Assembly (NCBI GenBank): GCA_900556705.1
Contig: USPT01000001.1
Location: forward strand, 1 to 32,930
Length of the DNA stretch: 32,930 nt
Reading direction: 5' to 3'
From: an uncultured Collinsella sp.
GTDB taxonomy: Bacteria; Actinomycetota; Coriobacteriia; Coriobacteriales; Coriobacteriaceae
A model generated the notes under the pieces. The model did no database searches. It was not told the origin of the DNA and saw only the letters and a list, made by a program, of their open reading frames with translations. This document shows, piece by piece, positions 15,154-32,930 of this stretch. The translations under genes and the position numbers were made by a program. The stretch's first letter is position 1, and every line of letters starts with the position of its first letter.

Positions 15154-16292
15154 TTCCCGGCCTCGAAATGCTCGTAAGCAGCCATGCCAGTCGCCGTGAA
15201 CGTCTTCCCATCCCGGTACACGCGCAGCGCCGAATCCAGAAGGGGCAGATACGCCATGGCGCCCGCGCCCTCGCCCAAGTGCATGCCTGCGTCGAGGGGT
15301 GCCTTTATGCCGAGCTCGCGAAGGAGCTCCTGGCTTGCGGGTTCGCTTGATGTGTGGGTGCCCACGAGGTAACCCAAGGCGTTGGGGCACAGGCGCGCCG
15401 CGCACAGGGCCGCCGTGCAGGATATGACCCCGTCGAGGAGCGCCGGCGCCTTCGAGGCCGCGGCCCCCAGGTAGAAACCGCACATCGCCGCGATGTCGAA
15501 GCCGCCCACCTTCGAGAGCACGTCGATCGGGTCGGCGGGATCGGGCGAGTTCGCGTCGATAGCGCGCTCGACCACGTCGCGCTTGCGCGCGAGCGAGGCG
15601 TCCGAGAGCCCCGCGCCGCGCCCGACGAGACTCCGCGCGTCCGTCCGGAGGAGCACTGCGGCCACCGCCGCCGAGGTGGTCGTGTTGCCGATGCCCATCT
15701 CGCCCGCGGCGAGAAGGCGCACGCCGGCGCGGGCAAGCCCGCACGCGACGGCGATTCCGACCTCGATCGCGCGCACGGCCCCATCGCGAGACATAGCGGG
15801 GCCGTACGCGATGTTGCCGCTCCCCCGCCGCACGTTCGCGCGCACCATGCGCGCGTCTTCTATGCCCCAGGCCATACCCACGTCGACGGGCACGACCTCG
15901 GCACCCGCGAACGCCGCCATGCGGCAGGCGCTCGTGGCCCCCTCGCACATGTTGCGCGCGACGACTCGCGTCACGTCTTGCCCGCTTTGCGACACGCCTT
16001 CGGCAACGACCCCGTTGTCGGAGAAGAATACCGCGAGCGCACGGGGAAACTCGACCACCTCGGCGCTCCCCTGAGCTGCGGCGATACACGCGACGGCGTC
16101 TTCAAAGTCGCCCAATCCCCCCAAGGGGTGCGCGATGGAGTCCCACGCGGCGTACGCGGCGGCGCGGGCGCACTCGTCTGCGGGCGCAATCCGGGAGAGC
16201 GCGGCTTCGAGCACGGCGCCCGGCGCCGACGAGAACGCGCGCTCGACTTCCTCGCGGATGCAGGCAAGCGCGGTTTCGGTTGCTTCAGCCAT
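15150..16292 (-). CDS. cobT: Nicotinate-nucleotide--dimethylbenzimidazole phosphoribosyltransferase
   Basis: PLGGLG, SDNGVVAEGVSQ, GEMGIGNTT, VGRGAG, VGGFDIAAM.G, LDG.I, MHLGEGAG. Confidence 0.94.
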   Translation of the reverse strand: MAEATETALACIREEVERAFSSAPGAVLEAALSRIAPADECARAAAYAAWDSIAHPLGGLGDFEDAVACIAAAQGSAEVVEFPRALAVFFSDNGVVAEGVSQSGQDVTRVVARNMCEGATSACRMAAFAGAEVVPVDVGMAWGIEDARMVRANVRRGSGNIAYGPAMSRDGAVRAIEVGIAVACGLARAGVRLLAAGEMGIGNTTTSAAVAAVLLRTDARSLVGRGAGLSDASLARKRDVVERAIDANSPDPADPIDVLSKVGGFDIAAMCGFYLGAAASKAPALLDGVISCTAALCAARLCPNALGYLVGTHTSSEPASQELLRELGIKAPLDAGMHLGEGAGAMAYLPLLDSALRVYRDGKTFTATGMAAYEHFEAGK

Positions 16293-17667
16293 GCCGTCTC
16301 CTCTCTGCGAACGACGCTGCGGCAGACGCGAACGCGCGCGCAACGTCGGGGTTCGCAGGATAGTACACATGCGGGAAGCCCGCAACCAGGGACGGGGTGG
16401 TCGTCATGCACGGCCAGCCCTTGTCGCGCCGGGGCTTCTGCGCCCAGAAGTCGCCGCCCGGGCAGGTGGACTGCCAGTAGTGGAACTCGTGCGCGCGGAT
16501 GCGTGTGCCGCGCGGCCCGTAGAGCCCGTCGCGTTGAGAAGTGAGCTCCACGTACCCGAAATGGGACAGCCTTCCCCCGTTCTCGCTTACGCCCTCAAGG
16601 GCGCCCGCAACAGGCCAGCGCCGCCCCTCGCTATCGGCGATTTCGCGCTGCAGATACAGAAACCCACCGCATTCGGCGACCGTCGGCATGCCAGATTCCA
16701 CCGCGCGCCGCACCGCCTCGCGCATCGGCGCGTTCTCGGAGAGCTGCCGCGCATGGAGCTCCGGGTAGCCGCCCCCCAGATAGAGGGCGCTTGTCCCCCG
16801 GGGCAACTCGCTATCACACAGGGGGCTGAAAAAGGCCAGCTCGCAACCCAGGTCCTCGAGCGCGCGCAGGTTCTCCTCGTAGTAAAACGAGAACGCCTCG
16901 TCACGCGCGACGGCGACGATGGGCCGCGCTCCCGCGATCGGCTCCAACCGATAAGGTTCCTCGCAGATATCGGGTGCCGTCGCCGCTATTTCAAGCAAGC
17001 GGTCGACGTTGACGCTCTTTTCCACCAGCTCGGCCATCTTGTCGATGCGCGCGGAGAGCTGCTTGACTTCGTCGGCGGTCACAAGCCCCAGATGCCGGCT
17101 TTCGAGCGAGAACGCCTCGTCGGCGGGAATATTACCCAAAACCGCGACGCCCGTGTGCTTCTCGATCGCAGGCGCCGCGTAGGCGCAGGCAGCGGCGCTC
17201 GTCTTGTTCAGCACGACGCCGCGCACGTTCGCACAAGGCAGGAACTCGGCGATGCCGCGGATTACGGCGGCGAGCGATAAAGACGCCCCGCGCCCGTTCA
17301 CCACTAAAACGACCGGCGTTTCCGTGTCGCGCGCAACCTGGTAGCTGCTCGCGTCGGCCACGCCGGGCGCCATGCCGTCGTAGAAGCCCATGACCCCCTC
17401 GAGCACCGCGACATCCGCGCCCGCGGCGCCGCGTGCGAGCAGGGCGCGCAGCGTCGGGGCGTCGGTGAAGAAGCCGTCTAAGTTGCCCGAGCGCGCACCC
17501 ACGACGCGGCGATGAAAGAGCGGGTCAATGTAGTCGGGGCCGCATTTGAAGGCCGCGCATGCAAGGCCGCGGCGCGCGAACGCGCGCAGGAGCGCGCACG
17601 TTACGACCGTCTTGCCGCTCCCACTCGAGGGCGCAGCGACCATGAAGCGCGGGATGGACGTGCTCAC
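16285..17667 (-). CDS. cbiA: Cobyrinate a,c-diamide synthase (CbiA/CobB)
   Basis: SGSGKT, FKCGPDYIDP, EGVMGFYDG, ESRHLGL, DEAFSFYY, GGGYPEL, AECGG, HEFHY. GTG 17667 overlaps the cbiET stop. Confidence 0.95.
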   Translation of the reverse strand: MSTSIPRFMVAAPSSGSGKTVVTCALLRAFARRGLACAAFKCGPDYIDPLFHRRVVGARSGNLDGFFTDAPTLRALLARGAAGADVAVLEGVMGFYDGMAPGVADASSYQVARDTETPVVLVVNGRGASLSLAAVIRGIAEFLPCANVRGVVLNKTSAAACAYAAPAIEKHTGVAVLGNIPADEAFSLESRHLGLVTADEVKQLSARIDKMAELVEKSVNVDRLLEIAATAPDICEEPYRLEPIAGARPIVAVARDEAFSFYYEENLRALEDLGCELAFFSPLCDSELPRGTSALYLGGGYPELHARQLSENAPMREAVRRAVESGMPTVAECGGFLYLQREIADSEGRRWPVAGALEGVSENGGRLSHFGYVELTSQRDGLYGPRGTRIRAHEFHYWQSTCPGGDFWAQKPRRDKGWPCMTTTPSLVAGFPHVYYPANPDVARAFASAAASFAERRRHG

Positions 17668-18911
17668 CGGGCGCCGCCTTCCCCACCTGCACCACGCGCG
17701 CTGACGAGGAACACGGGGTTTTGCGCCTTCATAAGATGGTGCGAGCCTACAGCCTCGGCACGGGCGGCCGACACCTGGCACGCCTCGAACCCCTTAAAGC
17801 GCGAACCCGAGAGGAGCGCGCACGCCTCGGTGAGCGTCTCAACAGTGACGCATGGCACGCACAGGCGAACCTGCGAGTTCTTCTCGAGCGCTGCCTCCAC
17901 GATGGAGGGAAGCTCGCCCGCGCTCCCGCCGACGAACACAGCGTCGGGAACGGGCAGTTTCGCGAGCGCTTCGGGGGCGACACCGGGGACCGCATGCACG
18001 TTGCCGCACCCGAATGCATCCGCGTTCTCTCGGATGAGCCGCACGCCGGCCGCGTTGCGCTCGACCGCCCATACCGACCCCGCTCGCGCGACGAGCGCCG
18101 CCTCGATCGACACGCTCCCCGTGCCGGCTCCGACGTCCCACACGGTGTCGGTAGCGGTAAGGCGCAGCTTCGCGAGCGCGACTGCGCGCACCTCCTGCTT
18201 GGTCATGGGAACGTCGCCGCGGATGAAGAGCTCGTCGGGAATGCCCGAGGAAGCGTACGGCCAGCGGGAACTCGCGGCGCGGGATGCGAACTCGATAAGC
18301 ATCACGTTCAAGTCGTCGAACGTCTGACCTGCGATTTCACTTGCGGTCGCGCAGGTGATGCGCTCGTCGGGGTACGACAGGCGCTCGGCCACCGTCACGC
18401 GCGCATCCCCGAAGCCCGCCTGCACAAGCTCGCCCGAAAGCCGCGAGGGGTCTTCCCCGCCCGACGTGACGAGAAAGAGCTCACCTGCGCGCTCGGCCTC
18501 GGCCACGATGTCGCACGCCACGCCGTGAGCGCTCGCGAAGCGCCAATCCTGCCATGGACGCGCGAGGCGCGCGGCGAGATAAGACGCTGAGCTTATGCCG
18601 GGAACGACGCGCACGTCCACCTGCGCGTCGCCGGAGAGCGCCTCCACCAGGCGGCGCGCGCCGCTGAACAGCCCCACATCGCCCGTCATCACGACCACGG
18701 CGCGCCGCCACGACGCCGCATCGGTGAGCGCGGCGACGATGTCCGCCGTCTTCACGAGCTCGCATCTCACCACGTCGGGCGGCACGTCGATGCCGGCAAG
18801 CGCGCGATGAGCGCCGATGACCACGTCGGCGAAGTCGATAGCGTCGAGCGCCGCGCGCGAGAGCAAGTCGGGGTTTCCGGGCCCCGCCCCGATGATCGTT
18901 ACCTTTCGCAT
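17664..18911 (-). CDS. cbiET: Bifunctional cobalt-precorrin-7 C5 / -6B C15 methyltransferase (CbiE-CbiT fusion, CobL-like)
   Basis: CbiE part: IIGAGPG, TGD.GLFSG, PGISS, SAHG, ERLSYPDERI. CbiT part: GIPDELF...PMTKQEVR, WDVGAGTGSVSIE, VFVGGS. Confidence 0.93.
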   Translation of the reverse strand: MRKVTIIGAGPGNPDLLSRAALDAIDFADVVIGAHRALAGIDVPPDVVRCELVKTADIVAALTDAASWRRAVVVMTGDVGLFSGARRLVEALSGDAQVDVRVVPGISSASYLAARLARPWQDWRFASAHGVACDIVAEAERAGELFLVTSGGEDPSRLSGELVQAGFGDARVTVAERLSYPDERITCATASEIAGQTFDDLNVMLIEFASRAASSRWPYASSGIPDELFIRGDVPMTKQEVRAVALAKLRLTATDTVWDVGAGTGSVSIEAALVARAGSVWAVERNAAGVRLIRENADAFGCGNVHAVPGVAPEALAKLPVPDAVFVGGSAGELPSIVEAALEKNSQVRLCVPCVTVETLTEACALLSGSRFKGFEACQVSAARAEAVGSHHLMKAQNPVFLVSARGAGGEGGAR

Positions 18912-19642
18912 GGAATCTCCCGATACCCGCGCGGCGTGACCATACGGCCGCCTACGAGCTTCGTGTTCGCGTTGCCGACGAACACGGTGGTGAACATGTC
19001 GGCGTCGATCTCCCCCAGCTCAGAGAGCCTACACATGCCCGACTGCTGCCCCTCGCGCCCGATGTTGCGTACCCAGCCGCAGAGCGTGTCGGGGGCCTTC
19101 CATTCGAGCATAATCTTCGCCGCGCGTGAGAGCCTGTCGGCGCGCTTTCTGCTGCGCGGGTTGTACAAACAGATGCAGAAGTCGGCGCTCGCCACGGCGG
19201 CGAGCCTGCGCTCGATGACCTCCCATGGCGTGAGCAGGTCGGAGAGCGACACGACCGCGAAGTCGTGGGCAAGCGGGGCGCCGAGCACCGCCGACCCGCT
19301 CTGAGCCGCGGTGGCCCCGGCGATAACTTCCACGTCTACATCGGGGTAGTCCTCCGCAAGCTCCAGCACGGGGCTCGCCATGCCGTACACGCCCGCGTCA
19401 CCGCTGCACACAAGCGCCACGGCTTCTCCGCTCTGCGCGCGCGAAAGCGCCAGGCGGCACCGTTCGACCTCGTGCATCATCGGCGTCGCGAGATGCGCCG
19501 CGTCGGGCACGGCGGCGAGCGCGAGCTCCACGTATTTCGTGTACCCCACAACGATGTCCGCCGCCTCGAGCGCGCGCCGGGCCGCAATCGTCATGCCGTC
19601 GGGGCCGCCCGGGCCGATCCCCACCACGAAGAGCTTTCCCAT
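18899..19642 (-). CDS. cbiH: Cobalt-precorrin-3B C17-methyltransferase (CbiH/CobJ)
   Basis: VVGIGPG, VGYTKY, EVERC, SGDAGVYGMA, GAPLAHDF, SLSDLLTPW, YNPRS..R, MVTPRGY. Start is ATG 19642 or GTG 19645. Confidence 0.95.
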   Translation of the reverse strand: MGKLFVVGIGPGGPDGMTIAARRALEAADIVVGYTKYVELALAAVPDAAHLATPMMHEVERCRLALSRAQSGEAVALVCSGDAGVYGMASPVLELAEDYPDVDVEVIAGATAAQSGSAVLGAPLAHDFAVVSLSDLLTPWEVIERRLAAVASADFCICLYNPRSRKRADRLSRAAKIMLEWKAPDTLCGWVRNIGREGQQSGMCRLSELGEIDADMFTTVFVGNANTKLVGGRMVTPRGYREIPCER

Positions 19643-20775
19643 CACCGCTCCTTAAACGAAAGTTCGATAGTTACCTTGGAAAACGCGACGGTCACGCCGC
19701 TGTGAGCGAGCTTCGGGAAGATAAGTTTGCCCCCGTCCGCGAGCGCCGCGCGCTCGCACACGTTGTCGACCCCCACCGTCGCGCGCACGAAATCAGATGG
19801 CGAAACGCTGCCATCGACTTGCGACAACTCATCTGCGGAATACGTCACAAGCGGAATATTGCGCGCGCGGCAGAAGGCGAGCAGACCCTCCTCGTGCGCC
19901 TTCACGTCGATCGTCGCCGCCTCGCGCACGGCCGAAGGCGAGATGCCCGCCTGCCCGCACGCGAGAAGAAACGCCTCCCCGATCGCTTCGGCGCACGCAC
20001 CGCGACGGCACCCTATGCCCGCAACGATACAGGGCACGACAAGGCGAAGCGGCTCGGGCGCAGGCGCCTGCGCCCGCATGCCTGCCGGCATCCCCGTCTC
20101 ACCGGCGGGCACGACCTCGTCCGTTGTCTCCGCCGCGCGAACGAACGCGCCTGCATTCGCGCCAGCGAACGGCGACACGACGATATCGGCCCGAGCGCGG
20201 TCGGACGCAATGTCTACCCCCTCAGGCGGCTGTCCCGAAATCGGCATGTCGGAATAGAGTGCCACGCGCCCGCCCGAAAGCAGCCGCGCCGACACTCGCT
20301 TGATGGCCTCGGGATTCGAAACGGCGAGCCCCGCACAGCGCGCCCACGTATCCACCGCCCACACGCCGCGGACGTCGGTCGCCGTGGTGATGACGGGGAT
20401 GGCCCCTACCGCGCGGGCCACAGTTTGCGCAAGCTCGTTCGCACCGCCCAAATGCCCCGACAAAAGCGGGACGGCAAAGCGCCCCGCCTCGTCAATCACC
20501 ACAACCGCGGAATCGGTTGCCTTCGAAGCGACATGCGGCGCGATCGCCCGCACGGCGATGCCCGCCGCGCCCACGAACAGAAGCGCGTCCGACGCTTCCC
20601 ACGCGAGCGCCGTCCATGCGCGCAGGTCGGCCTTCCCCTCGCCGAACCCGCGCGAAACGGAAACGTCCCAGCCAGGGTCATCTTCACCTGTCTGCGCGCA
20701 ATCGGAAAGCGCGCGTGCAGTGCGCTCCGCCAACGCATACCCCCTCTCAGTGAACGCTATGCAGGAAATCCTCAT
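19642..20775 (-). CDS. cbiG: Cobalt-precorrin-5A hydrolase (CbiG)
   Basis: GAAGIAVRAIAP...K.TD.AVVV.DE.G, LLSGHLGGAN, PVITTATD, GIGCRRG, SDFV...VGV.NVCERAA. Confidence 0.93.
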   Translation of the reverse strand: MRISCIAFTERGYALAERTARALSDCAQTGEDDPGWDVSVSRGFGEGKADLRAWTALAWEASDALLFVGAAGIAVRAIAPHVASKATDSAVVVIDEAGRFAVPLLSGHLGGANELAQTVARAVGAIPVITTATDVRGVWAVDTWARCAGLAVSNPEAIKRVSARLLSGGRVALYSDMPISGQPPEGVDIASDRARADIVVSPFAGANAGAFVRAAETTDEVVPAGETGMPAGMRAQAPAPEPLRLVVPCIVAGIGCRRGACAEAIGEAFLLACGQAGISPSAVREAATIDVKAHEEGLLAFCRARNIPLVTYSADELSQVDGSVSPSDFVRATVGVDNVCERAALADGGKLIFPKLAHSGVTVAFSKVTIELSFKER

Positions 20776-21009
20776 CTAGCGCACCACCATCGTCGAGAAG
20801 TAGCTGCCCCGATCGGGCACATCGTCAAGCGAGCGGTACACGCGCTCGCCCGGAAGCCCACAGTCCTCTACGAGCTCGGCACCGTCAAAGGCGCCCTCCT
20901 CGCGAAGAATGCGCTTCGTGTCCGCAAGCGAGCGGCGCGCCTTCATGACCACCTTCGTCCCCGGCCAGCCGATTGCGCGGCCCACCTCGTACAGCACGCC
21001 TTTACTCAT
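20776..21009 (-). pseudogene. cbiL: Internally deleted cobalt-precorrin-2 C20-methyltransferase (CbiL/CobI) remnant, 77 aa
   Basis: N-terminus MSKGVLY(E)VG is joined directly to the CbiL C-terminal region GTKVVMK...VEDCGLPGERVY...YFSTMVVR. It lacks the GPGDP SAM-binding motif and the central core. It occupies the cbiD-cbiG interval, with ATGAGTAA coupling to cbiD. Confidence 0.8.
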
Positions 21010-22186
21010 ACGTCGCCCCCAATACCCCGATAACTGCATCGGCGCCCGACGTGCGGAAAAGCTCGCGGCGCTCGGCGTCGAACACGACCGCGGCGATGTC
21101 GCATGCGCCCGCCGCGCGGCGGCGCAACCTGTCCTCGATTGCCGCAGCGAGCGAGGCGCACGCAGCGTCCCCCACGCCGGCGGCCTCGATTACCTCGAGT
21201 GCCGCCGTGGTCGTGACGGACGTCATGATCTCGCGCACGGTCTTCGCGCCCGCGCCGGCCATGGCCGCGTGGGCGGCCAGAATCTCCGCGCGGCAGTCGG
21301 CGGTACGCGAATGGGTGTCCATGATACCGCCCGCGACCTTCACCAACTTGCCGATGTGTCCCACAAGAAGGACATTGGTAAATCCCTCGCGAATGCAGCA
21401 ATCAATCGCATCGCCCACAAAGTTGGAGATGAAGACCACCGGCGCACCGTTTAGGTGGAAATGCCCTGAGATGAACTGCGCGCCGTAGTTGCCGGGCGTG
21501 AGCACGACTCCGCACCGCCCCATAGCCGCATGCTGCCGGATCTCGAGCTCGATACTGTCGCGCAAGGCAGCGAGGCTGCGCGGCTCGACGATGCCCGTCG
21601 TGCCCAGGATGGAGATGCCGTCCTTTATCCCCAGGTGCGGGTTGAAGGTCTTTTCGGCAAGGGCAACACCCTCGGGTACCGAAATTGTCACAGCAATATC
21701 TCCAGAAAAGCCGTGCACGGCGCACACCTCGCGCACCGCCGAAGTGATCATCGCGCGCGGCGTCGCGTTGATGGCGGCCGCCCCCACCGGCTGCTCGAGC
21801 CCGGGCAACGTCACGCGCCCCACGCCCACGCCGCCGTCGACGGAAACTTCCGATTCGTGCGCGGGTACGTCCTTGCTGCCCGCAGCGCCCGTGCCCGACC
21901 CCGCATGTTCCACGCGCGCGTACACGAGCACGCCGTCGGTCACATCGGCATCGTCGCCTGCGTCCTTTCGCACGGCACACTGGGCGCACCCCTCGCCGAT
22001 GCATGCGTCGACCACGTTCGCCTCGACGGGCAGCCCGCCGGGGGTGACGATCGACACGAGGCCGACGGGCTTTCGTGACAAGAGCATCTCGCAGGCCGCC
22101 TTCGCCGCGAGCGCGGCGCAGCTCCCCGTGGTGTAGCCGCAGCGCAGGCGGGTCGTCCCGGTATATATGTAGTGCTCGAAGGCCAC
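21002..22186 (-). CDS. cbiD: Cobalt-precorrin-5B C1-methyltransferase (CbiD)
   Basis: LRCGYTTGSCAALAAKAA, KDAGDDADVT, GVGRVTLPGL, AINATPR, KTFNP.LGI..GISILGTTGIV.P, GH.GKLVK.AGG...THSR. GTG start at 22186. Confidence 0.95.
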   Translation of the reverse strand: MAFEHYIYTGTTRLRCGYTTGSCAALAAKAACEMLLSRKPVGLVSIVTPGGLPVEANVVDACIGEGCAQCAVRKDAGDDADVTDGVLVYARVEHAGSGTGAAGSKDVPAHESEVSVDGGVGVGRVTLPGLEQPVGAAAINATPRAMITSAVREVCAVHGFSGDIAVTISVPEGVALAEKTFNPHLGIKDGISILGTTGIVEPRSLAALRDSIELEIRQHAAMGRCGVVLTPGNYGAQFISGHFHLNGAPVVFISNFVGDAIDCCIREGFTNVLLVGHIGKLVKVAGGIMDTHSRTADCRAEILAAHAAMAGAGAKTVREIMTSVTTTAALEVIEAAGVGDAACASLAAAIEDRLRRRAAGACDIAAVVFDAERRELFRTSGADAVIGVLGATYE

Positions 22187-22187
22187 G

Positions 22188-22979
22188 CTAGCTGCTCGCC
22201 TTCCGATACCCCGTGGAAAACGAAGGGTCGTAAAGCTTGCTGCGCTCGTACGACTCCGCTTGCGCGCCGTTGTGTGCAAGCCTGCCGCGAGCTCCGAGCA
22301 CGCGGCCCACCACCACGAGCGCCGTGCGGTCGATGCCCTCTCGCGCGCCCGCATCGGCGAGCGTGCGCACTGTGCATCGCACCACGCGCTCCTCAGGCCA
22401 GGTCGCCTTGTACACGAGCGCCGCCGGCTCATCGGAGCTGCGGCCCGCGGCCAAAAGCTCGGCGGAAAGCTCGGCGAGCATACCCGAGCTCAGGAAGATG
22501 ACCATAGTCGAGCCGCTTTCCGCCATGGTGCGCATGCCCTCGCCCGCGGGCATGGGGGTGCGCCCGGAAAGCCGCGTGATCACGACCGACTGGCTGATTC
22601 CCGGCAGCGTATATTCCTGGCGAAGCGCCGCCGCGGCACCGCAAAAGCTCGACACGCCGGGCACCACCTCGTAGTCCACGCCGCGCGCGTCGAGCGCGTC
22701 CATCTGCTCCTGGATGGCGCCGTACAGGCACGGGTCGCCCGTGTGCAGGCGCACCACTTCCTCGTCCCGCGCATCTGCCGCGCACATCACGTCGAGCACT
22801 TCCTCCAAGGTCATGTGCGCGCTGTCATAGACGATGCAGGATTCCTTGCACTCGGCGAGCAGCTCGGGGTTCACAAGGCTCCCCGCCCAAACGACCACGT
22901 CGGCCGCGCGCAAAAGGCGCGCCCCGCGCAGCGTGATAAGGTCGGCGGCGCCCGAGCCAGCGCCAACGATATGAATCAT
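22188..22979 (-). CDS. cbiF: Cobalt-precorrin-4 C11-methyltransferase (CbiF/CobM)
   Basis: MIHIVGAGSGAADLITLRG, AGSLVN, RLHTGDP..YGAI.EQ, E.TLPG.SQ, YKATWP.E, RSKLY...F. RBS GGAAGG upstream of ATG 22979. Confidence 0.95.
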   Translation of the reverse strand: MIHIVGAGSGAADLITLRGARLLRAADVVVWAGSLVNPELLAECKESCIVYDSAHMTLEEVLDVMCAADARDEEVVRLHTGDPCLYGAIQEQMDALDARGVDYEVVPGVSSFCGAAAALRQEYTLPGISQSVVITRLSGRTPMPAGEGMRTMAESGSTMVIFLSSGMLAELSAELLAAGRSSDEPAALVYKATWPEERVVRCTVRTLADAGAREGIDRTALVVVGRVLGARGRLAHNGAQAESYERSKLYDPSFSTGYRKASS

Positions 22980-23110
22980 CCGAGCCTTCCCTTCCCGTTT
23001 CTCATCGCAACCGTTTACGCTGCCATTCGCGCAGCGGCCAAAACACGGCGCCCGAAGCGGCAATCGGCGCAAATACGCAGGCAGGAGGCGCAATGCCGCC
23101 CGCCCTGGCT

Positions 23111-23139
23111 TTGACACGTTCAAAAGTGCCCACTATCAT
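23111..23139 (+). promoter_or_regulatory. Sigma70-type promoter for the riboswitch/cbiK operon
   Basis: TTGACA (23111-23116), 17-bp spacer, TATCAT (23134-23139). Confidence 0.75.
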
Positions 23140-23172
23140 AGTAAAAGATTCGGCAACGAGCATATGACAATC

Positions 23173-23321
23173 GGATAAAAGGAAATGACCGGCGCGGCGC
23201 CCGCACAGCCCGCGCTGGCTTGCGGAGGGAACCAGGTGGGAATCCTGGGCAAGGGACATTACTGTATAGGACGCGCGGGCGAACCGCCTCGCGCCCCAAG
23301 CCAGACTGCTTCGCCTTTTCC
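23173..23321 (+). promoter_or_regulatory. Cobalamin (B12) riboswitch; boundaries approximate
   Basis: Core AGGGAA-CCAGG-TGGGAAT-CCTGG...ACTGTA...AAGCCAGA, with closing helix GGATAAAAGG/CCTTTTCC. Located in the 5' leader of cbiK and the transport genes. Confidence 0.85.
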
Positions 23322-23437
23322 TCACGGCATCGCCGTGGCGTTAGCTCCTTGTGAACCCCGAGGGGTGCGCTTTTCTTTCGCTTGTGCCGACAAGCAACTG
23401 TCGCCGGGGGACCGGCAAACCGAGGAAAGGAAAAACC

Positions 23438-24364
23438 ATGTCCGACCAGATGTCACGCCGCGGCTTCATGGGCGCCGCAGCAACCGGAGCCGTCGCGCTC
23501 GCTGGAGTCGCGCTCGCGGGCTGCTCCAACACCTCCGCGAGTTCCGAGAAATCGAGTGAAAAGGAGAAGGCCGTGAAGCCGGTCATCCTCGTCACGAGCT
23601 TCGGCACGAGCTACAACGACTCGCGCCACATCACCATCGGCGCCATCGAAGACGCTATCCGCGAGAAGTACTGGCAGGACTACGACATCCGCCGCGCCTT
23701 CACCGCGCAGATCATCATCGACAAGCTGAAGAAGCGCGACGGCATCACGATCGACAACATGACCGAAGCGCTCGACCGCTGCGTGGAAGACGGCGTGAAG
23801 GAAATCGTCGTGCAGCCGACACATCTCATGGGTGGCCTGGAATACACCGACGTGAAAGACGAGCTCGACAAGTACGCTGACAAGTTCGACAAGATCTCGC
23901 TCGGCGACCCGCTGCTCACCTCCGACGACGACTACAAGAAGGTGGCCGCAGCCATTAAGGAGAACATGGCGTCCTTCGACGACGGCAAGACGGCGCTGTG
24001 CCTCATGGGCCACGGCACCGAAGCCGATTCCAACGCCGACTATGCCAAGATGCAGGAAGTGTTTAAGAACGAGGGCTTGACGCAGTTCTTCGTCGGCACC
24101 GTCGAGGCTGAACCGACCTGCGAGGATGTTATCGCCGCCGCGAGCGCCGCAGGCTACAAGAAGGCCGTGCTCGCGCCGTTCATGGTGGTCGCGGGCGACC
24201 ACGCGAACAACGACATGGCAGACGAGACCGACCCCGACAGCTGGGCTGCGAAGTTCGTGGCCGCCGGCTTCGAAGTGACGTGCCTGCTCCAGGGTCTGGG
24301 ACAGAACGTCGCGGTCGACGACATCTACGTCGCGCACGTGGACGACGCCATCGCCAAGCTGTAA
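23438..24364 (+). CDS. cbiK: CbiK-family cobalt chelatase carrying a Tat signal and lipobox (exported lipoprotein)
   Basis: MSDQMSRRGFMG (twin-arginine) and ALAGC lipobox. ILVTSFGTSY, RRAFT, QPTHLM.G.EY, MGHGT, VGTVE, VAGDHANNDM carry the metal-ligand His/Glu/His. Confidence 0.92.
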   Translation: MSDQMSRRGFMGAAATGAVALAGVALAGCSNTSASSEKSSEKEKAVKPVILVTSFGTSYNDSRHITIGAIEDAIREKYWQDYDIRRAFTAQIIIDKLKKRDGITIDNMTEALDRCVEDGVKEIVVQPTHLMGGLEYTDVKDELDKYADKFDKISLGDPLLTSDDDYKKVAAAIKENMASFDDGKTALCLMGHGTEADSNADYAKMQEVFKNEGLTQFFVGTVEAEPTCEDVIAAASAAGYKKAVLAPFMVVAGDHANNDMADETDPDSWAAKFVAAGFEVTCLLQGLGQNVAVDDIYVAHVDDAIAKL

Positions 24365-24373
24365 ACTCGCCGC

Positions 24374-24446
24374 GCACGGGGGCGCCGGTCGCGTCCCCGT
24401 GCAACGGGCATGCGCCTTCCCCGACCGACGGCGCATGCCCGTTGCA
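24374..24446. other. Tandem intercistronic stem-loops after cbiK
   Basis: 12-bp stem (24374-24385 with 24391-24402, one G-U pair) and a perfect 17-bp stem TGCAACGGGCATGCGCC / GGCGCATGCCCGTTGCA (24400-24416 with 24430-24446). No U-tract follows. Confidence 0.7.
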
Positions 24447-24509
24447 TTCGCGTCCCGCCCTCCCACCGCACGAGCGGGCGGTCGAAGCGATTGAAAGGAA
24501 CCTCCCTCC

Positions 24510-25043
24510 ATGTTGAAGAAAACCCTCGCCTTCGCCCTGTCAGCGGCGCTTTTCGCGTTCTCGCTCGCCGGCTGCGGCGGAAATTCAATCGACAGCGCAA
24601 AGGCAAGCGATGCCGATTCCCAGGAAAAGACCGAACAGGCGGCCGATGCGCCCGAGGGCGCAAGCGCTGCCCCCATCACCGCCGACAAGGTGGCCGACGG
24701 CACCTATCCGATCACCGTAGATTCCAGCTCGAACATGTTCAGGATTGTGGACGCCCAGCTCATCGTGGAAAACGGCTCCATGCACTGCGTGATGACGCTT
24801 TCCGGCACGGGCTACGGCAAGCTCTTCATGGGCACGGGCGACGAGGCTGCCGCCGCGAGCGAGGCCGACTTCATCCCCTATGTGGAAAACGCGGAAGGCA
24901 AGTACACCTACGACGTGCCCGTTGAAGCGCTCGACGAGGACACCGCCTGCGCCGCGTGGAGTATTAGAAAAGAGCAGTGGTACGACCGCACGCTCGTGTT
25001 CGAATCCGCCGGCGTCGATCTGCGCGCCGACGCACTGAAGTAA
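24510..25043 (+). CDS. Uncharacterised lipoprotein with one NEAT-like beta-rich domain
   Basis: RBS GAAAGGA, signal peptide with SLAGC lipobox, acidic linker, then DGTYPITVDSSSNMFRI...TLSGTGYGKLFMG...TYDVPVEALD...WYDRTLVF. Confidence 0.75.
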   Translation: MLKKTLAFALSAALFAFSLAGCGGNSIDSAKASDADSQEKTEQAADAPEGASAAPITADKVADGTYPITVDSSSNMFRIVDAQLIVENGSMHCVMTLSGTGYGKLFMGTGDEAAAASEADFIPYVENAEGKYTYDVPVEALDEDTACAAWSIRKEQWYDRTLVFESAGVDLRADALK

Positions 25044-25047
25044 CGCC

Positions 25048-26619
25048 ATGCGGTCGATTCTTCCCAAGGGGGAAAGCAGGAAGCGTCGCAGCATCGCGGT
25101 GCGCGCGATCGCCTGCGTTCTCGTCGCCCTGTTCGCGCTTCCCTTCGCGGGGTGCAGTGCGAGCCCGAACGCGACCGGTGGCACGGCAGGCTCTCAGGAA
25201 TACACTGTGAGCGTCTCGCTCTCCGGCGGGTCAGGGCGCGCAAGCATCGCCTCACCCACCACAATTGTGAAGGATGGCGACACCTACACCGCGACCATCA
25301 CCTGGTCGAGTTCGAACTACGACAAAATGACCGTCAACGGCGTGGACTACGCGCCCGTAAACGACGGCGGCAACTCCACGTTCGTGATACCCGTCACGCT
25401 CGACGAGGACATCGCCGTGTCGGCCGAGACCGTCGCCATGTCAACGCCGCACACCATCGACTACACGCTCCACTTCGATTCATCCACCATGAAGGAGAAA
25501 TCGGGCGACGAAGCAAGCGGCGGCTCCCCTGCGGGAACGGCTTCAAACGCCGCGGCCGACTTCCACAACGCCGATTTGGGCTGCGGCTGGAAGCCGACGG
25601 GGACGCTTCAGCTTGAATACGCCGAGCACTTCACTGTCGACGAGTACGAAGGCGGCCTGCGGCTTATCTGCATTTCGAACGGGGAGCGCTTCCTCGTGGT
25701 GCCGCAAAATGCAAAGGTACCTGATGGGTTGAGCTCCGACATCGCGGTCATAAGGCGCCCCGCCGACAAGGTGTACCTCGTGTCGTCGGCGACGATGTGC
25801 CTGGTCGACGCGCTCGATGCGAACGACAATATCCTCATGTCGGGCACGAAGGCCGACGATTGCTCGGTCGCGGGCTTTAAAAGCGCGCTCGAAAGTGGGG
25901 CGATCGCCTACGGCGGCAAGTACAGCGCGCCCGACTACGAGCGAATATCGGCCTCGGGCTGCACGCTCGCCATCGAGAACACCATGATCAACCACACGCC
26001 CGATGTGAAGGAAAAGCTGCAGAAACTCGGGCTCGTCGTGCTCACCGAACAGTCGTCGAGCGAGCCCGAAGCACTCGGGCGCGTCGAGTGGATTAAGCTT
26101 TTCGGCGTCCTGTTCGACAAGGAAGACGAGGCCGCGCACCTGTTCAACGAGCAGAAGGCCCGCGTCGAGCAAACGTCGGGGCTCGCGTCGTCAGGTAAAA
26201 CCGTGGCGTATTTCTACATTAACTCGAACGGGGCCGCCGTCACGCGGCGGGCGGGCGACTACGTGGCGCAGATGATCGAGCTTGCAGGCGGCAGCTACGC
26301 GCTCGATGACGCGCAGACGGCGTCGACGTCAGGTTCGTCAGTAACGCTCGAAATGGAGCGCTTCTACGCGACGGCGAAGGATGCCGACATCATCGTCTAC
26401 AACGGCGCCATCGACAAATCGGTTGCCACCTTGAACGACTTTGTAGGCAAAAACGCGCTATTGTCGCAGTTCAAAGCCGTGAAGAATGGCAACGTCTGGG
26501 TCACAAGCGCCGACATGTACCAGCAGATGACTTCTACCGCCGACATTATCGACGAGCTGCACGGGGCGTTCACCGGCGATGACGCGAGCGACTTCCATTA
26601 TCTGAGGAAGCTTGGCTAG
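25048..26619 (+). CDS. ABC substrate-binding lipoprotein: N-terminal NEAT-like domain fused to a BtuF/iron-chelate-type binding domain
   Basis: FAGC lipobox, then the domain EYTVSVSLSGGSGRASI...AMSTPHTIDYTLHFD and a linker. The C-terminal domain LEYAEHF...GKYSAPDYE...E.EALGRVEWIKLFG...GNVW resembles B12/Fe-complex binding proteins. Confidence 0.85.
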   Translation: MRSILPKGESRKRRSIAVRAIACVLVALFALPFAGCSASPNATGGTAGSQEYTVSVSLSGGSGRASIASPTTIVKDGDTYTATITWSSSNYDKMTVNGVDYAPVNDGGNSTFVIPVTLDEDIAVSAETVAMSTPHTIDYTLHFDSSTMKEKSGDEASGGSPAGTASNAAADFHNADLGCGWKPTGTLQLEYAEHFTVDEYEGGLRLICISNGERFLVVPQNAKVPDGLSSDIAVIRRPADKVYLVSSATMCLVDALDANDNILMSGTKADDCSVAGFKSALESGAIAYGGKYSAPDYERISASGCTLAIENTMINHTPDVKEKLQKLGLVVLTEQSSSEPEALGRVEWIKLFGVLFDKEDEAAHLFNEQKARVEQTSGLASSGKTVAYFYINSNGAAVTRRAGDYVAQMIELAGGSYALDDAQTASTSGSSVTLEMERFYATAKDADIIVYNGAIDKSVATLNDFVGKNALLSQFKAVKNGNVWVTSADMYQQMTSTADIIDELHGAFTGDDASDFHYLRKLG

Positions 26620-27664
26620 CGTCATGAGAAGCCGGCTTTCCATGACATACGACGAATCGGGGCGCGCCGCGCGGTGTCGCGTCGTGACGGCGCTGCTCGC
26701 TGTTGCCCTCATCGTGCTCGTCGGGGCCAACCTGTGCATCGGGAGCGTGCTCGTGCCCGCAGACCACATCCCCGGTATCCTTTCGGGCGGCGCGGCCAAT
26801 TCCATGGAAAGCCAAGTCATCTGGGAGATTCGCCTGCCGCGTGTGCTTTCAGCCGTGCTTCTCGGCGGGGCGCTTTCTCTCTCCGGGTTCCTGCTGCAGA
26901 CGTTTTTCAACAACCCCATCGCCGACCCGTTCATCTTGGGCGTCTCCTCGGGCGCAAAGTTCGTCGTCGCGCTTACGATGATCGTGCTTCTGGGCGCGAA
27001 CCAGGCCATGTCCTCGCCGGCCATGGTGGCCGCAGCGTTTCTGGGATCGCTTATCACCATCGGCTTCGTGCTCCTCATCGCACAGCGCATAAGTTCCATG
27101 GCCATGCTCATCGTGGCGGGCGTCATGGTGGGATACATCTGCTCGGCGGCGACGAACTTTCTCATCGCCTTCGCCGACGACCAGTCCATCGTGAACCTGC
27201 ACAACTGGTCTTTGGGTAGCTTCTCAGGTTCGAGCTGGGACGACATCGCGGTCATCGCGGTCGTGGTGATCACCGTGAGCGCATGCGTATTCGCGATATC
27301 GAAGCCCCTTTCCGCCTTCCAGCTGGGAGAAGCCTACGCGAAAAGCGTCGGCGTGAACGTCGCACGCTTCCGCGTGGTGCTCGTCCTTCTAGCGAGCATG
27401 CTCTCCGCCTGCGTGACCGCGTTCGCTGGTCCGGTGTCGTTCGTAGGCATCGCGGTTCCGCATCTCGTGAAGTCGGCGCTGAAGTCGTCGAAGCCCATCC
27501 GCGTGATTCCTGCGTGCTTCTTGGGAGGCGCCATCTTCTGCGCGGGCTGCGATTTGATCGCGCGCACGCTGTTCTCCCCCGTCGAGCTTTCCATCAGCGC
27601 CGTCACCGCCATCTTCGGCGCGCCGGTGGTTATCGCACTCATGTTGAAGAAGCGGGTGAGGTAG
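26612..27664 (+). CDS. FecCD/BtuC-family ABC permease
   Basis: IRLPRV, LLQTFFNNPIADPFILGVSSGA, W.LGSF, LGEAYAKS.G, GPVSFVG.AVPHL, CDLIAR. Start is TTG 26612 or ATG 26624. Confidence 0.93.
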   Translation: MASVMRSRLSMTYDESGRAARCRVVTALLAVALIVLVGANLCIGSVLVPADHIPGILSGGAANSMESQVIWEIRLPRVLSAVLLGGALSLSGFLLQTFFNNPIADPFILGVSSGAKFVVALTMIVLLGANQAMSSPAMVAAAFLGSLITIGFVLLIAQRISSMAMLIVAGVMVGYICSAATNFLIAFADDQSIVNLHNWSLGSFSGSSWDDIAVIAVVVITVSACVFAISKPLSAFQLGEAYAKSVGVNVARFRVVLVLLASMLSACVTAFAGPVSFVGIAVPHLVKSALKSSKPIRVIPACFLGGAIFCAGCDLIARTLFSPVELSISAVTAIFGAPVVIALMLKKRVR

Positions 27665-28879
27665 ATGGGGGAATTCATGCCGCGGCCCAAAACGCTCAGA
27701 GGGGAGTCGAACCTCGAAACCCCGGTCGAAACGCAGGCTGACGGAGCGCCGCTTTTCCGCATAAGCGACCTGTCGGCGGGCTACGACAAGAAGGTCGTAG
27801 TCGAAGGCGTCGATCTGGAGGTTCGCGCGGGCGACGTCGTGGCGCTCATCGGGCCGAACGGCTCGGGCAAGTCGACCATCTTGAAAACCATCACACGCCA
27901 TCTGGCACCGCTTGCCGGCGCGGTCGAGCTCGACGGGCGAGAGATTTCCCGATGGAAGACGGCGGAGTTCGCAAGGAACCTTGCCGTTATGCTGACAGAT
28001 CGCCCCCGGACCGAGCTCCTCACCTGCCGCGATATCGTAGAGGCGGGAAGGCATCCCTACACCGGGCGAATGGGCACACTCTCGCCTGACGACTACAGTC
28101 GGGTCGACGAGGCCATGAAAACCGCACATGTGGAAGAGCTCGCCGAGCGCGACTTCATGCAGATAAGCGACGGGCAACACCAGCGCGTCATGCTCGCACG
28201 CGCCATCGCGCAGGATCCGCGTGTGCTCGTGCTCGACGAGCCCACATCGTATCTCGATATCCGCTACCAGATCGACCTGCTGCGAATACTTCGCCACCTT
28301 GCGAAATCGCGGAATGTGGCTGTCATCATGTCCATCCACGAACTCGAGCTCGCGCAGAAAAGCGCCGACAGGGTGATTTGCGTGAAGGACGGCCGGGTCT
28401 TCCGCGCCGGCGCACCCGAGGACATATTCACGCGCGAGACGATTGGCGAGCTCTACGGCCTTAAACATGGCACCTTCAACGAGCGCTTCGGCAGCGTGGA
28501 AATTGGGCGCCCACACGGCGATGCGCACACGTTCGTCATCGCCGGCGCAGGTACGGGGTCAGCTGTGTTTCGCCAGCTAATCCGGCAGGGCAAGGCGTTC
28601 TACGCGGGCGTTCTGCACGAAGGGGACATCGACTGCGAGCTTGCGCGCGACCTGGCGACGGAATGCGTGGCCGAGCGCGCCTTCGAGCCGATCGGGGATA
28701 AAACCATAGCCCGCGCCAAAGAGCTCCTCGTTCACTGCGCGCGTCTTATCGTGTGCCCCGCCGCCTTCGGCACCATAAACGCCCGCAACGCAGAGCTCGT
28801 CGAGTTCGCACGATCGCATGGTATCGAGGTCATGCGAGCGTGCGAAGGCGCATCGGAGGATTCCATTGGATACGCCTAG
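27665..28879 (+). CDS. FecE/BtuD-family ABC ATPase with a C-terminal extension
   Basis: GPNGSGKST, GRHPY, ISDGQHQR, VLDEPTSYLD, SIHEL. An extra ~125-aa C-terminal segment begins at FVIAGAGTG. Confidence 0.92.
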   Translation: MGEFMPRPKTLRGESNLETPVETQADGAPLFRISDLSAGYDKKVVVEGVDLEVRAGDVVALIGPNGSGKSTILKTITRHLAPLAGAVELDGREISRWKTAEFARNLAVMLTDRPRTELLTCRDIVEAGRHPYTGRMGTLSPDDYSRVDEAMKTAHVEELAERDFMQISDGQHQRVMLARAIAQDPRVLVLDEPTSYLDIRYQIDLLRILRHLAKSRNVAVIMSIHELELAQKSADRVICVKDGRVFRAGAPEDIFTRETIGELYGLKHGTFNERFGSVEIGRPHGDAHTFVIAGAGTGSAVFRQLIRQGKAFYAGVLHEGDIDCELARDLATECVAERAFEPIGDKTIARAKELLVHCARLIVCPAAFGTINARNAELVEFARSHGIEVMRACEGASEDSIGYA

Positions 28880-29067: not shown

Positions 29068-30501
29068 ATGTCGCTTACACAGTCAGCAGAGCGTGCAGCG
29101 CTCAACAAGCTCATCGATTATCTCGACGACAACCCGCAAGAAAACATCGACAAAATCATGGACCTCGTGAAAAAGCTGGTCCCCAATCGCGTATTTCCTG
29201 TACAGCGAGAGGCATTCACCAATGTCATCAAGAGCCGCGGCAATTGGTATGACCTGATTATGCGTGTGTTCAGCCTTAATCCCCAGATGCGAACCAAACT
29301 GCTTAAGACCCTCATTGTCGACGCCAACCTGCTTGCTTGGCCAGAGCAGGAAAAGAACCGCGAAAAGTACCAGTGCAACGTTCCGTGGGCCATCCTGCTC
29401 GATCCCACGAGCGCCTGCAACCTGCATTGCACGGGCTGCTGGGCCGCCGAGTACGGCTACAAGCAGAATCTCTCGTTCGAAGACATCGACTCTATCGTTA
29501 CGCAGGGCAAAGCTCTGGGTACCCACATCTACATCTACACTGGTGGCGAGCCATTGGTGCGCAAGCGGGACCTCATCCGAATTTGCGAGAAGCACCAGGA
29601 CTGCGCATTCCTGTGCTTTACCAACTCCACGCTGATCGACGAGGCCTTCTGCGACGATATGATTCGCGTAGGTAATTTTGTCCCTGCCATCAGCGCCGAG
29701 GGCAATGAGCACACCACCGACGCCCGTCGCGGCGAGGGTACCTACGCAAAGATCGAGCACGCCATGAAACTCCTGCGCGAGCGCGACTTGCCGTTTGGTA
29801 TCTCCACCTGTTGGACCAGCGCCAATGCCGATACGGTTGCTACCGAGGAGAACATGGACTGGATGATCGGCGAGGGAGCACTCTTCTGCTGGTACTTCCA
29901 CTTTATGCCGGTTGGCCGCAATGCAACCCCCGAGCTCATGCCCACGCCCGAGCAGCGCGAGCACATGTATCACTTTATCCGCGAGATGCGAGAGAAGAAG
30001 CCGCTGTTTACGCTCGACTTCCAAAACGACGGCGAGTTTGTAGGCGGATGTATCGCCGGCGGCCGCCGCTACCTGCACATCAACGCCGCCGGAGACGTGG
30101 AGCCGTGCGTGTTCATCCACTACTCAAACGCCAACATCCACGATGTGAGCTTACTCGACGCGCTGCGCTCTCCCCTCTTTATGAAGTACTACGAGAACAT
30201 GCCGTTTAACGACAACTACCTCAAACCATGCCCCATGCTCGAGAATCCAGACGTACTGCCCAAACTGGTCGCCGAGAGTGGCGCAATGAGCACCGACCTA
30301 ATCGAGAAGGAGTCACCCGAGCAGCTGCGCGAAAAGACCCAGGCTGCCGCCGAGGCATGGTCACCTGTCGCCGACCGCATCTGGAACGACTCCGACGATC
30401 CGCTATACGCCAAGCGTCACGAGGACAAGTCGCAGGGCATGGCCGATAGCGACATGCACAAGTTCGAAAAACAGGGCCGCATACTCAAAAACGGCGATTA
30501 A
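29068..30501 (+). CDS. Radical SAM protein with a SPASM/twitch-like C-terminal domain; function unknown
   Basis: CNLHCTGC (CxxxCxxC), YTGGEPL, FTN.TL, GGCIAGGRRYLHINAAGDVEPCVF, PCPMLENP. RBS GAAAGGA. Confidence 0.9.
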   Translation: MSLTQSAERAALNKLIDYLDDNPQENIDKIMDLVKKLVPNRVFPVQREAFTNVIKSRGNWYDLIMRVFSLNPQMRTKLLKTLIVDANLLAWPEQEKNREKYQCNVPWAILLDPTSACNLHCTGCWAAEYGYKQNLSFEDIDSIVTQGKALGTHIYIYTGGEPLVRKRDLIRICEKHQDCAFLCFTNSTLIDEAFCDDMIRVGNFVPAISAEGNEHTTDARRGEGTYAKIEHAMKLLRERDLPFGISTCWTSANADTVATEENMDWMIGEGALFCWYFHFMPVGRNATPELMPTPEQREHMYHFIREMREKKPLFTLDFQNDGEFVGGCIAGGRRYLHINAAGDVEPCVFIHYSNANIHDVSLLDALRSPLFMKYYENMPFNDNYLKPCPMLENPDVLPKLVAESGAMSTDLIEKESPEQLREKTQAAAEAWSPVADRIWNDSDDPLYAKRHEDKSQGMADSDMHKFEKQGRILKNGD

Positions 30502-32875: not shown

Positions 32876-32930
32876 TGGTAGCCCGTACCAGATTCGAACT
32901 GGTGATCTCCGCCTTGAGAGGGCGGCGTCC
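32876..32930 (-). tRNA. tRNA-Glu (anticodon CTC); 5' part lies beyond the window end
   Basis: Minus strand reads GGACG-CCGCC-CT-CTC-AA-GGCGG-AGATC-ACCAG-TTCGAAT-CTGGT-ACGGGCT-ACCA: anticodon arm, T-arm and an encoded CCA. Confidence 0.95.

Follow-up and report, generated by a model that had tools for sequence, protein, structure and literature searches.

Relays of the Isd/Hbp type, such as Staphylococcus aureus IsdA/B/C/H to IsdE to IsdF, Bacillus anthracis IsdX1/X2 and Listeria Hbp2 with Lmo2184, combine surface NEAT-fold domains with a class III binding lipoprotein and a FecCD-type ATP-binding cassette (ABC) importer; sortase anchors, regulation by iron and an enzyme that degrades haem are further features of Isd. 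BtuFCD together with the Bacteroides proteins BtuG (a beta-propeller) and BtuH represents a second class, in which corrinoid importers are under riboswitch control and have additional proteins for capture at the surface. In a 32,930-nucleotide stretch from an uncultured Collinsella sp. (GCA_900556705.1, contig USPT01000001.1, positions 1 to 32,930; hereafter the window), five consecutive plus-strand genes comprise cbiK, a 177-aa gene, a 523-aa gene, a FecCD permease gene and an ABC ATPase gene. The first three products of this operon all start with lipoprotein signals. A preliminary description made from the sequence alone had given this gene set and its coordinates (23438-28879) and had read the order as three lipoproteins followed by a BtuC/BtuD-type ABC pair; Pfam and NCBIfam matches and the lipoboxes bear this out. 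The parts have precedents in NEAT relays, BtuFCD importers, the exported CbiKs of Desulfovibrio vulgaris and Porphyromonas gingivalis, and precursor salvagers, and by analogy the module has the appearance of an Isd-type relay redirected to the B12 branch. The operon probably lets a cell without ring-precursor synthesis take B12-type molecules from its neighbours.

Two described systems contain an exported CbiK. Lobo et al. 2008 reportedly found two CbiKs in D. vulgaris, one cytoplasmic and one periplasmic, the latter being the copy under B12 regulation. The D. vulgaris system resembles the window's locus in having an exported CbiK, cbiL and a BtuCDF-type importer under one B12 element, and the window CbiK matches its CbiK(P) structure (2xvx, E 1.1e-32); unlike the cassette, it belongs to a diderm and is without NEAT-fold proteins, and the function attributed to CbiK(P) has so far been haem-related. 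The accessible part of PMC545781 places one B12 element of Desulfovibrio over cbiK-cbiL and btuCDF. In P. gingivalis (ihtABCDE), the CbiK-family surface lipoprotein FetB/IhtB likewise adjoins a binding protein, a permease and an ATPase, but an outer-membrane TonB-dependent receptor takes the place of the NEAT domains; the available excerpts read iht as an iron, haem or Mn-porphyrin system, and no riboswitch link was seen in them. According to the accessible sections of PMC13065792, FetB accepts Co and Mn, but neither Fe nor Ni, for insertion into a porphyrin analogue in vitro and has no reverse activity on haemin, and the cells' production of Mn-protoporphyrin IX depends on fetB. P. gingivalis has no steps to precorrin-2 and retains later cbi genes, as the excerpted text of PMC6461909 describes it.

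The two small domains of the window operon are homologous to each other. Domain A occupies residues ~60-166 of the 177-aa lipoprotein (24510-25043, +; lipobox SLAGC, Cys22). Domain B (~25189-25491, +) lies at the N-terminus of the 523-aa lipoprotein (25048-26619, +; lipobox FAGC, Cys36), followed by a class III substrate-binding protein (~25570-26616, +). The two domains share 25% identity by BLASTP (E 3e-5), and hhalign of domain A against the binding-protein family profile gave a probability of 97.6% and an E-value of 3.1e-12 over 97 columns, the domain A profile being built from stand-alone proteins, with signal peptides and fused forms left out. The pattern that had been noticed by eye in both domains thus reflects true homology. 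Domains A and B occur fused in one lipoprotein of ~290 aa in the Firmicutes.

Predicted models of both small domains have the NEAT fold. AlphaFold2 gave predicted local distance difference test (pLDDT) values >90 over the cores of both (residues 55-165 for domain A) and 85 for the 523-aa protein. All top Foldseek matches of domain A were NEAT domains (IsdX2-N5, E 1.5e-4), as were the only top matches of domain B (IsdX1, E 5.7e-5, TM-score 0.68). VIA-align superposed domain A on 4h8q (Z 10.7, root-mean-square deviation 2.3 Å, 98 residues aligned) and domain B on 4h8p (Z 12.1, 2.6 Å, 101 residues aligned); the first 43 rows of each list are NEAT or Shp chains, and unrelated folds appear only from Z 5.3 (domain A) or 5.9 (domain B) downwards. 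We assign the modelled domains to the NEAT fold because both programs rank it far above other folds, so the NEAT-like character suggested from sequence is upheld by structure prediction and Foldseek, and by VIA-align in addition.

Sequence profiles place the domains at the edge of the Pfam NEAT family (PF05031). Window domain A scores 13.1 bits (E 0.13), below the gathering score of 32.8, and window domain B has no Pfam NEAT match; relatives score 18 to 32.2 bits, the fused Firmicutes forms (29 to 32.2) falling just under the threshold. The haem-ligating signature of NEAT domains is YxxxY on the last strand. Sequence alignments show this motif to be absent from domains A and B: the last strand of domain B carries a conserved HxxxY, its Tyr invariant and its His nearly so, and that of domain A an invariant WYD with a single Tyr, in addition to a conserved SSSxMF loop. 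A fused A+B profile searched against the PDB reached only IsdX1, at E 0.24, too weak for mapping ligand residues. A complex prediction of CbiK residues 45-308 with domain A residues 55-172 scored 0.00 against a mark of 0.32, which has no bearing on binding. The cassette proteins therefore resemble Isd/Hbp relays in their strong fold matches and in the closest solved relative of the binding protein (Lmo2184, below), but differ in being lipid-anchored or fused to the binding protein rather than sortase-anchored, in lacking YxxxY and in scoring under the Pfam NEAT gathering threshold. The window's operon contains neither sortase signals nor haem-degrading genes, the examination being confined to the operon, with no Fur-box or genome-wide search made.

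The first gene of the operon (23438-24364, +) encodes an exported CbiK-family class II chelatase (Pfam CbiK 265 bits). Its N-terminus carries SRRGFMG followed by the lipobox ALAGC (Cys29), a signal that resembles those of twin-arginine translocation (TAT); with the TAT-signal model it reaches 16.2 bits, just under the cut-off of 16.7. The protein matches Salmonella CbiK (1qgo, E 1.6e-44), FetB (9b86, E 1.7e-37) and, as given above, CbiK(P) in the PDB, and scores 225.4 bits with the NCBIfam CbiK equivalog, below its cut-off of 400. H192, E223 and H255, which from the alignment with 1qgo we take to correspond to the metal-site His, Glu and His of Salmonella CbiK, do not vary among 26 cassette CbiKs. 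Lipoprotein signals are present in 54/56 cassette CbiKs with a complete N-terminus, which sets them apart from the cytoplasmic CbiK of the cbi pathway. A cytoplasmic product made from a later start codon was considered and rejected because the export signals are conserved across the family. The exported protein is the only CbiK/CbiX match in the four complete Collinsella genomes and also in genomes G064, G023 and G296. In genome G254, which has hemB and hemA, there are two CbiKs, a signal-less 268-aa copy on the hemB contig and an exported one.

The remaining genes supply a complete BtuFCD-type set by Pfam: a class III binding protein, a FecCD/BtuC-type permease (26612-27664, +; Pfam FecCD 272 bits) and an ABC ATPase (27665-28879, +; NCBIfam match) with a C-terminal extension of ~125 residues. 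None has an equivalog-level match to BtuC, BtuD or BtuF. Peripla_BP_2 covers residues 245-488 of the 523-aa protein (E 1e-30) and leaves the extra N-terminal domain. The binding-protein part alone found nothing in the PDB by phmmer at E <=0.001; only the family profile reached Lmo2184 (5joq, E 2.2e-8), which we take to be the haem-type binding protein of the Listeria Hbp/SrtB haem locus, and it matched BtuF (5ysc) at only E 0.14. There is also a weak match to IsdE (E 1.9e-4). The cassette thus resembles BtuFCD with BtuG/BtuH in being a riboswitch-linked importer with surface capture proteins, but differs in the folds of those proteins, in the distance of its binding protein from BtuF, and in having a chelatase, which those systems do not. 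The best NCBIfam model for the permease is BtuC (208 bits, below the cut-off of 334) and that for the ATPase is PRK09536, an archaeal corrinoid ABC ATPase (247 bits, below the cut-off of 537); the latter match spans positions 2-349 of 402 and so reaches into the C-terminal extension. The extension (residues ~280-404, no Pfam match) is common to the archaeal corrinoid ATPase model and the ATPases of the Firmicutes cassettes. The cassette permease is the sole FecCD match in each of the four complete Collinsella genomes. In contigs from RNA libraries of other strains, the 5' end of the ATPase gene is longer by ~90 bases near 27700.

The operon is preceded by a leader that reads as a reduced but conserved homologue of the cobalamin riboswitch and may still act as a switch in this lineage. 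A reduced aptamer (23184-23315, +) contains the core GGGAACCAGGTGGGAATCCTGGGC; RF00174 matches 23184-23294 (+), and a B12-box-like AAGCCAGACTGCTTCGCC, read from the alignment, occupies 23298-23315 (+). A terminator-like hairpin with a T-rich tail (23344-23376, +) is the candidate expression platform, and its stem, GTGAACCCCG..GG, is kept in four lineages. At the Rfam gathering score (31.5 bits, RF00174) there is no Cobalamin riboswitch in the window; using E-value thresholds, the RF00174 match scores 16 bits with E 0.049 in 341 nt. The element is conserved in three diverged relatives (loci L112-L114), whose cassette proteins are ~47-69% identical to those of the window. The core GGGAAyCAGGTGnnAATCCTGnGC and the AGCCAG..GCC box are invariant in the four lineages, and 8/40 predicted pairs covary, in a comparison of only four sequences. 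The orthologue in L113 matches the full RF00174 model, with a shortened P6 region, at 27.6 bits (E 2e-5) and is the sole RF00174 match in the whole L113 genome. We read the leader as a reduced cobalamin riboswitch because of the invariant core and box, the covarying pairs and the score of the L113 orthologue. The preliminary description had placed the operon behind a cobalamin riboswitch, in a span that begins downstream of the element; a conserved, reduced homologue does lie upstream, but at only 16 bits against a gathering score of 31.5 the window sequence falls short of a family-level assignment. No RF00174 match at E <=0.01 occurs anywhere in the four complete Collinsella genomes of the window's group, and no riboswitch was detected for the divergent minus-strand cbi operon (22980-23183 region). 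At a similarly arranged locus, L120, the intergenic region contains two Cobalamin riboswitches, one per direction (108 and 60 bits).

A promoter-like site (TTGACA, 17 nt, TATCAT; 23111-23139, +) upstream of the aptamer matches the consensus at 11/12 positions, and a consensus scan of the region found 2 sites where 1.4 are expected by shuffling. RNA-library contigs from two studies start at 23148 and 23158, have no loose ends and extend into the operon, a weak hint only. Contigs from RNA libraries also run through the 23344-23376 hairpin, which shows nothing either way on switching. In all, RNA-library contigs from four studies cover the operon; such contigs give no information on expression level, on the strand transcribed or on whether the genes share one transcript, and they may include carried-over DNA.

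The same cassette is widespread and is generally associated with Cobalamin riboswitches. Metagenome contigs scanned with the fused A+B alignment yielded 80 loci, many of them near-duplicates, among which the order CbiK, domains A+B, binding protein, permease, ATPase is conserved. CbiK is directly upstream in 56 of the 59 loci with enough upstream sequence, and the binding protein (55/55), permease (50/51) and ATPase (39/40) follow. Rfam was run on 27 of the 80 loci, picked for upstream sequence and size, and in 25 of them the first cassette gene is closely preceded by a Cobalamin riboswitch that reaches the gathering score (39 to 114 bits); the other two are L119 and L124, which lacks CbiK. 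Among six Coriobacteriia loci, two have the riboswitch (L116, 70 bits; L117, 84 bits). The proposed link between homologues of the small domains and B12 riboswitches is borne out by these counts, and the B12 element, the exported chelatase and the cbi linkage separate the cassette from the iron-regulated Isd/Hbp relays.

Linkage to cobamide ring genes, and to cbiL in particular, recurs among these loci. In L116 and L117 the genes downstream of the riboswitch lie on one strand. They encode domain A, a CbiK lipoprotein, a Cys-rich protein of PF04071, CbiL (L117 only), a domain B with a membrane anchor, and then the binding protein, permease and ATPase, with cbiD and cbiF coming last. At least three cbi ring genes lie within 10 kb in 7/80 loci, and tblastn of the DNA at these seven loci found no second CbiK homologue (CbiX was not among the queries). 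True CbiL, scoring above the TIGR01467 cut-off, is encoded inside the cassette in L117, directly after the ATPase in L190 and L158, and 2.4 kb downstream of the cassette in L187, L189, L195 and L197; in the available DNA of these last six loci no other ring gene is present. This stand-alone linkage of the cassette to cbiL is new. The PF04071 protein is a small Cys-rich cytoplasmic protein (82 bits) encoded inside the cassette at L116 10482-10865 and L117 6085-6390, and the CbiKs of these two loci have an extra N-terminal region of ~100 residues.

A scan of genome contigs returned only Collinsella among the best 80 loci. In the class sample, domain A is present in 112/401 Coriobacteriia genomes and 6/124 genera, and in 105/144 Collinsella genomes (the window's own assembly, G000, counted apart). 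CbiD is present in 110 of the 112 carrier genomes, and in the remaining two the cassette lies at the end of a contig; the proposed tie to cbi genes is therefore supported by co-occurrence as well. Where computation could have spoken against the preliminary description, the two domains turned out homologous, NEAT-like and associated with B12 riboswitches and cob genes. Two genomes of another family, G150 and G210, carry a domain A 96-97% identical to that of the window and may represent mis-binned Collinsella contigs or recent transfer. Locus L115 (G254:C18:1-14000) is a variant with no FecCD importer within its 14 kb; its gene order starts with an ArsR-family regulator and a CbiK that is a TAT lipoprotein. 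Two A+B NEAT-fold proteins come next, a tandem one anchored in the membrane by its C-terminus and a second, also anchored one, with an ABC-2 type exporter between them, and cbiL, sirC and hemA complete the series.

The early steps of the pathway were not found in Collinsella. Because the window's own assembly is only 57% complete, relatives were used for the gene-absence checks. No HemB was found in 144 Collinsella genomes; among the 112 carriers it occurs in three (G210, G254 and G296), of which G296 has HemB yet an exported CbiK only. HemC was found in none of five genomes including the four complete Collinsella, HemD in none of the four complete ones, and SUMT above its cut-off in none of five genomes that include these four. 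CbiJ and CbiM are present in 4/4 complete Collinsella genomes, and G156 is without CbiM. Roper et al. (2000) reportedly raised the puzzle of corrin-ring enzymes without precursor synthesis for P. gingivalis. C. aerofaciens has been called a possible precorrin-2 auxotroph (Rodionov et al., in the accessible part of PMC6593275; also PMC8123684); the same part of PMC6593275 lists it as needing B12 for growth, and PMC4403557 predicts it to be a cobalamin producer. Gut bacteria with corrin-ring enzymes and without early steps are classed as tetrapyrrole precursor salvagers in the available text of Shelton et al. (PMC6461909). What is new for Collinsella genomes is the combination of a single chelatase and a single FecCD importer with an absent early pathway and a polymorphic cbiL.

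The window retains only a remnant of cbiL (20776-21009, -) between cbiD and cbiG, consisting of C-terminal codons (~78 from the first Met), of which 62 residues align to positions 230-290 of full CbiL. The same remnant is present in 4/4 complete relatives, and full-length CbiL was not found in these four genomes. Full-length CbiL is encoded in L112-L114 and in 22/151 Collinsella genomes, always beside cbiD, and is thus polymorphic within the genus.

To account for these observations, we tentatively prefer uptake of B12-branch tetrapyrroles by a B12-feedback-controlled, Isd-like surface relay, with cobalt insertion by the surface CbiK ahead of import. The substrate, the surface chelation and each binding and hand-off step are what we infer in this scheme. 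A NEAT-fold lipoprotein would catch the ligand at the cell surface, and the lipid-anchored CbiK would put Co2+ into a metal-free, sirohydrochlorin-type precursor shed by neighbouring organisms. The product would be handed to the NEAT-fold domain on the binding protein and then to the binding-protein cleft, imported by the FecCD/ATPase pair and completed to a cobamide by CbiL and the other cbi enzymes, and adenosylcobalamin would turn the operon off via the leader RNA. Complete corrinoids probably share the same importer. We favour chelation at the surface because the chelatase site is conserved and the exported CbiK is the sole chelatase in genomes with ring enzymes and without precorrin-2 synthesis, because the precursor-making genome has a separate cytoplasmic CbiK, and because cbiL, the user of the CbiK product, alone travels with the cassette, as in Desulfovibrio. 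The strict form of this proposal, in which the sole chelatase acts outside the cytoplasm and isobacteriochlorin from a neighbour is cobalt-loaded at the surface and passed via the NEAT domains and ABC importer to CbiL, we consider rather unlikely. The preliminary description had proposed an Isd-like relay for corrinoids, an earlier tetrapyrrole or cobalt, and the NEAT folds, the riboswitch and the cbi links support such a relay, with these three as its putative ligands.

Several observations weigh against cobalt insertion at the surface. The window's cbiL is a remnant and full CbiL occurs in only 22/151 genomes, so that, judging from these genes, the step after cobalt insertion is missing, and imported Co-sirohydrochlorin would therefore have no next enzyme in the window's lineage; the early-precursor branch may for this reason be vestigial there, with only the corrinoid branch in use. 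C. aerofaciens is listed as needing B12 (PMC6593275) and has a sole FecCD permease (an importer of the energy-coupling factor type was not searched for), and the importer may therefore have to carry complete B12. The best NCBIfam models of the permease and ATPase are corrinoid ones, though below their cut-offs. A further CbiK match, weaker than the first, is present in genomes G020 and G156. A shared fold reveals no ligand, and for sirohydrochlorin in the gut the accessible part of PMC6461909 cites only uroporphyrin III in stool. Because the carriers are related to one another and the cassette lies next to the cbi genes, the co-occurrence counts amount to four or five independent lineages at most.

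The main alternative is that the system takes up corrinoids only, with the NEAT domains and the binding protein catching cobamides or cobinamide in the manner of BtuG/BtuH and the CbiK-fold lipoprotein acting as a non-catalytic binder or chaperone. We regard this as possible, if somewhat doubtful. Control by a B12 riboswitch is typical of B12 importers, the sub-threshold transporter models point the same way, and no other permease of this type occurs in four complete genomes of a species that PMC6593275 (accessible part) lists as needing B12. The cassette also stays intact while cbiL is truncated in the window's lineage. What corrinoid-only uptake leaves unexplained is the invariance of the metal-site residues in 26 exported CbiKs, the exported CbiK as sole chelatase in genomes that keep the cbi ring genes, the travelling of cbiL alone with the cassette, and CbiD in all carriers but the two contig-end cases; the binding-protein profile, moreover, is nearer Lmo2184 than BtuF. 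Surface cobalt insertion and corrinoid uptake may both be true, with one importer carrying several cobalt tetrapyrroles and the early branch decaying in this lineage.

Two other accounts fit less well than either of these. Acquisition of haem or iron, as proposed for P. gingivalis IhtABCDE or as in Isd systems, with the surface CbiK binding haem or removing its iron, appears improbable. The closest structures are all haem-binding NEAT domains, Lmo2184 is the best solved relative of the binding protein, which also has its weak IsdE match, and FetB/IhtB and D. vulgaris CbiK(P) bind haem (PMC12094164 and PMC13065792, as far as their available text goes). Set against this are control by a B12 riboswitch, rather than by an iron signal, in 25/27 loci, the embedding of the cassette in cbi operons, the replacement of YxxxY by HxxxY in domain B and a single Tyr in domain A, and the absence of a haem-degrading gene from the operon; FetB itself is without Fe chelatase activity and without reverse activity on haemin in the accessible sections of PMC13065792. 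The cassette might instead capture cobalt, using the cell's own or a foreign tetrapyrrole as a cobalt carrier that is loaded by surface CbiK and re-imported, which we judge very improbable. It would suit G254, which makes precursors, yet has a single locus holding an exported CbiK, two NEAT proteins, an ABC-2 type exporter and an ArsR-family regulator, as well as G156, which is without CbiM, and delta-proteobacteria with cbiK lack known cobalt transporters in the accessible part of PMC545781. In Collinsella, however, CbiM is present in 4/4 complete genomes, the carrier cannot be made by the cell itself, and the window's operon has no exporter.

We found no published description of the cassette or of NEAT-fold proteins under B12 control, in a search that left subscription journals largely outside. 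The publications examined, as far as their text was available, describe no uptake route for precursor salvagers, for which the cassette is a concrete, widespread candidate. If cobalt is inserted outside the cytoplasm, the cassette would be the missing uptake route of precorrin-2 salvagers, and its NEAT-fold domains would be the first to bind a tetrapyrrole other than haem. If it takes up corrinoids only, it would be the first Gram-positive surface capture system for B12-type molecules and would add a new ligand class to the haem-relay fold. Either bears on the B12 dependence of Collinsella, an abundant human gut genus, on its neighbours.

A cobamide gene cluster (7233-23123, -; Pfam, NCBIfam and CbiJ matches) diverges from the operon. 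From its promoter-proximal end it contains cbiF (22188-23123), cbiD, the cbiL remnant, cbiG, cbiH, cbiET, cbiA, cobU, cobS, cobC, cbiB, cobD, cbiP, cobA, cbiC and, at the distal end, cbiJ (7233-8276). Within the operon, a near-perfect hairpin of ~20 bp with an 11-nt loop and without a T tail (24398-24448) lies between cbiK and the 177-aa gene and may be a processing or stabilising element. Strains vary by small indels just downstream of this hairpin, at 24471-24503.

A radical SAM/SPASM gene (29068-30501, +) adjoins the operon. Its best matches are weak ones to the tetrapyrrole-modifying enzymes NirJ2 and AhbD, at 71-77 bits, far below the cut-offs. This gene was considered as a part of the module and rejected because a homologue lies beside the cassette in 0/80 metagenome loci. 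The window ends in a tRNA gene (32879-32930, -; Rfam 35.4 bits), which is cut by the window end.

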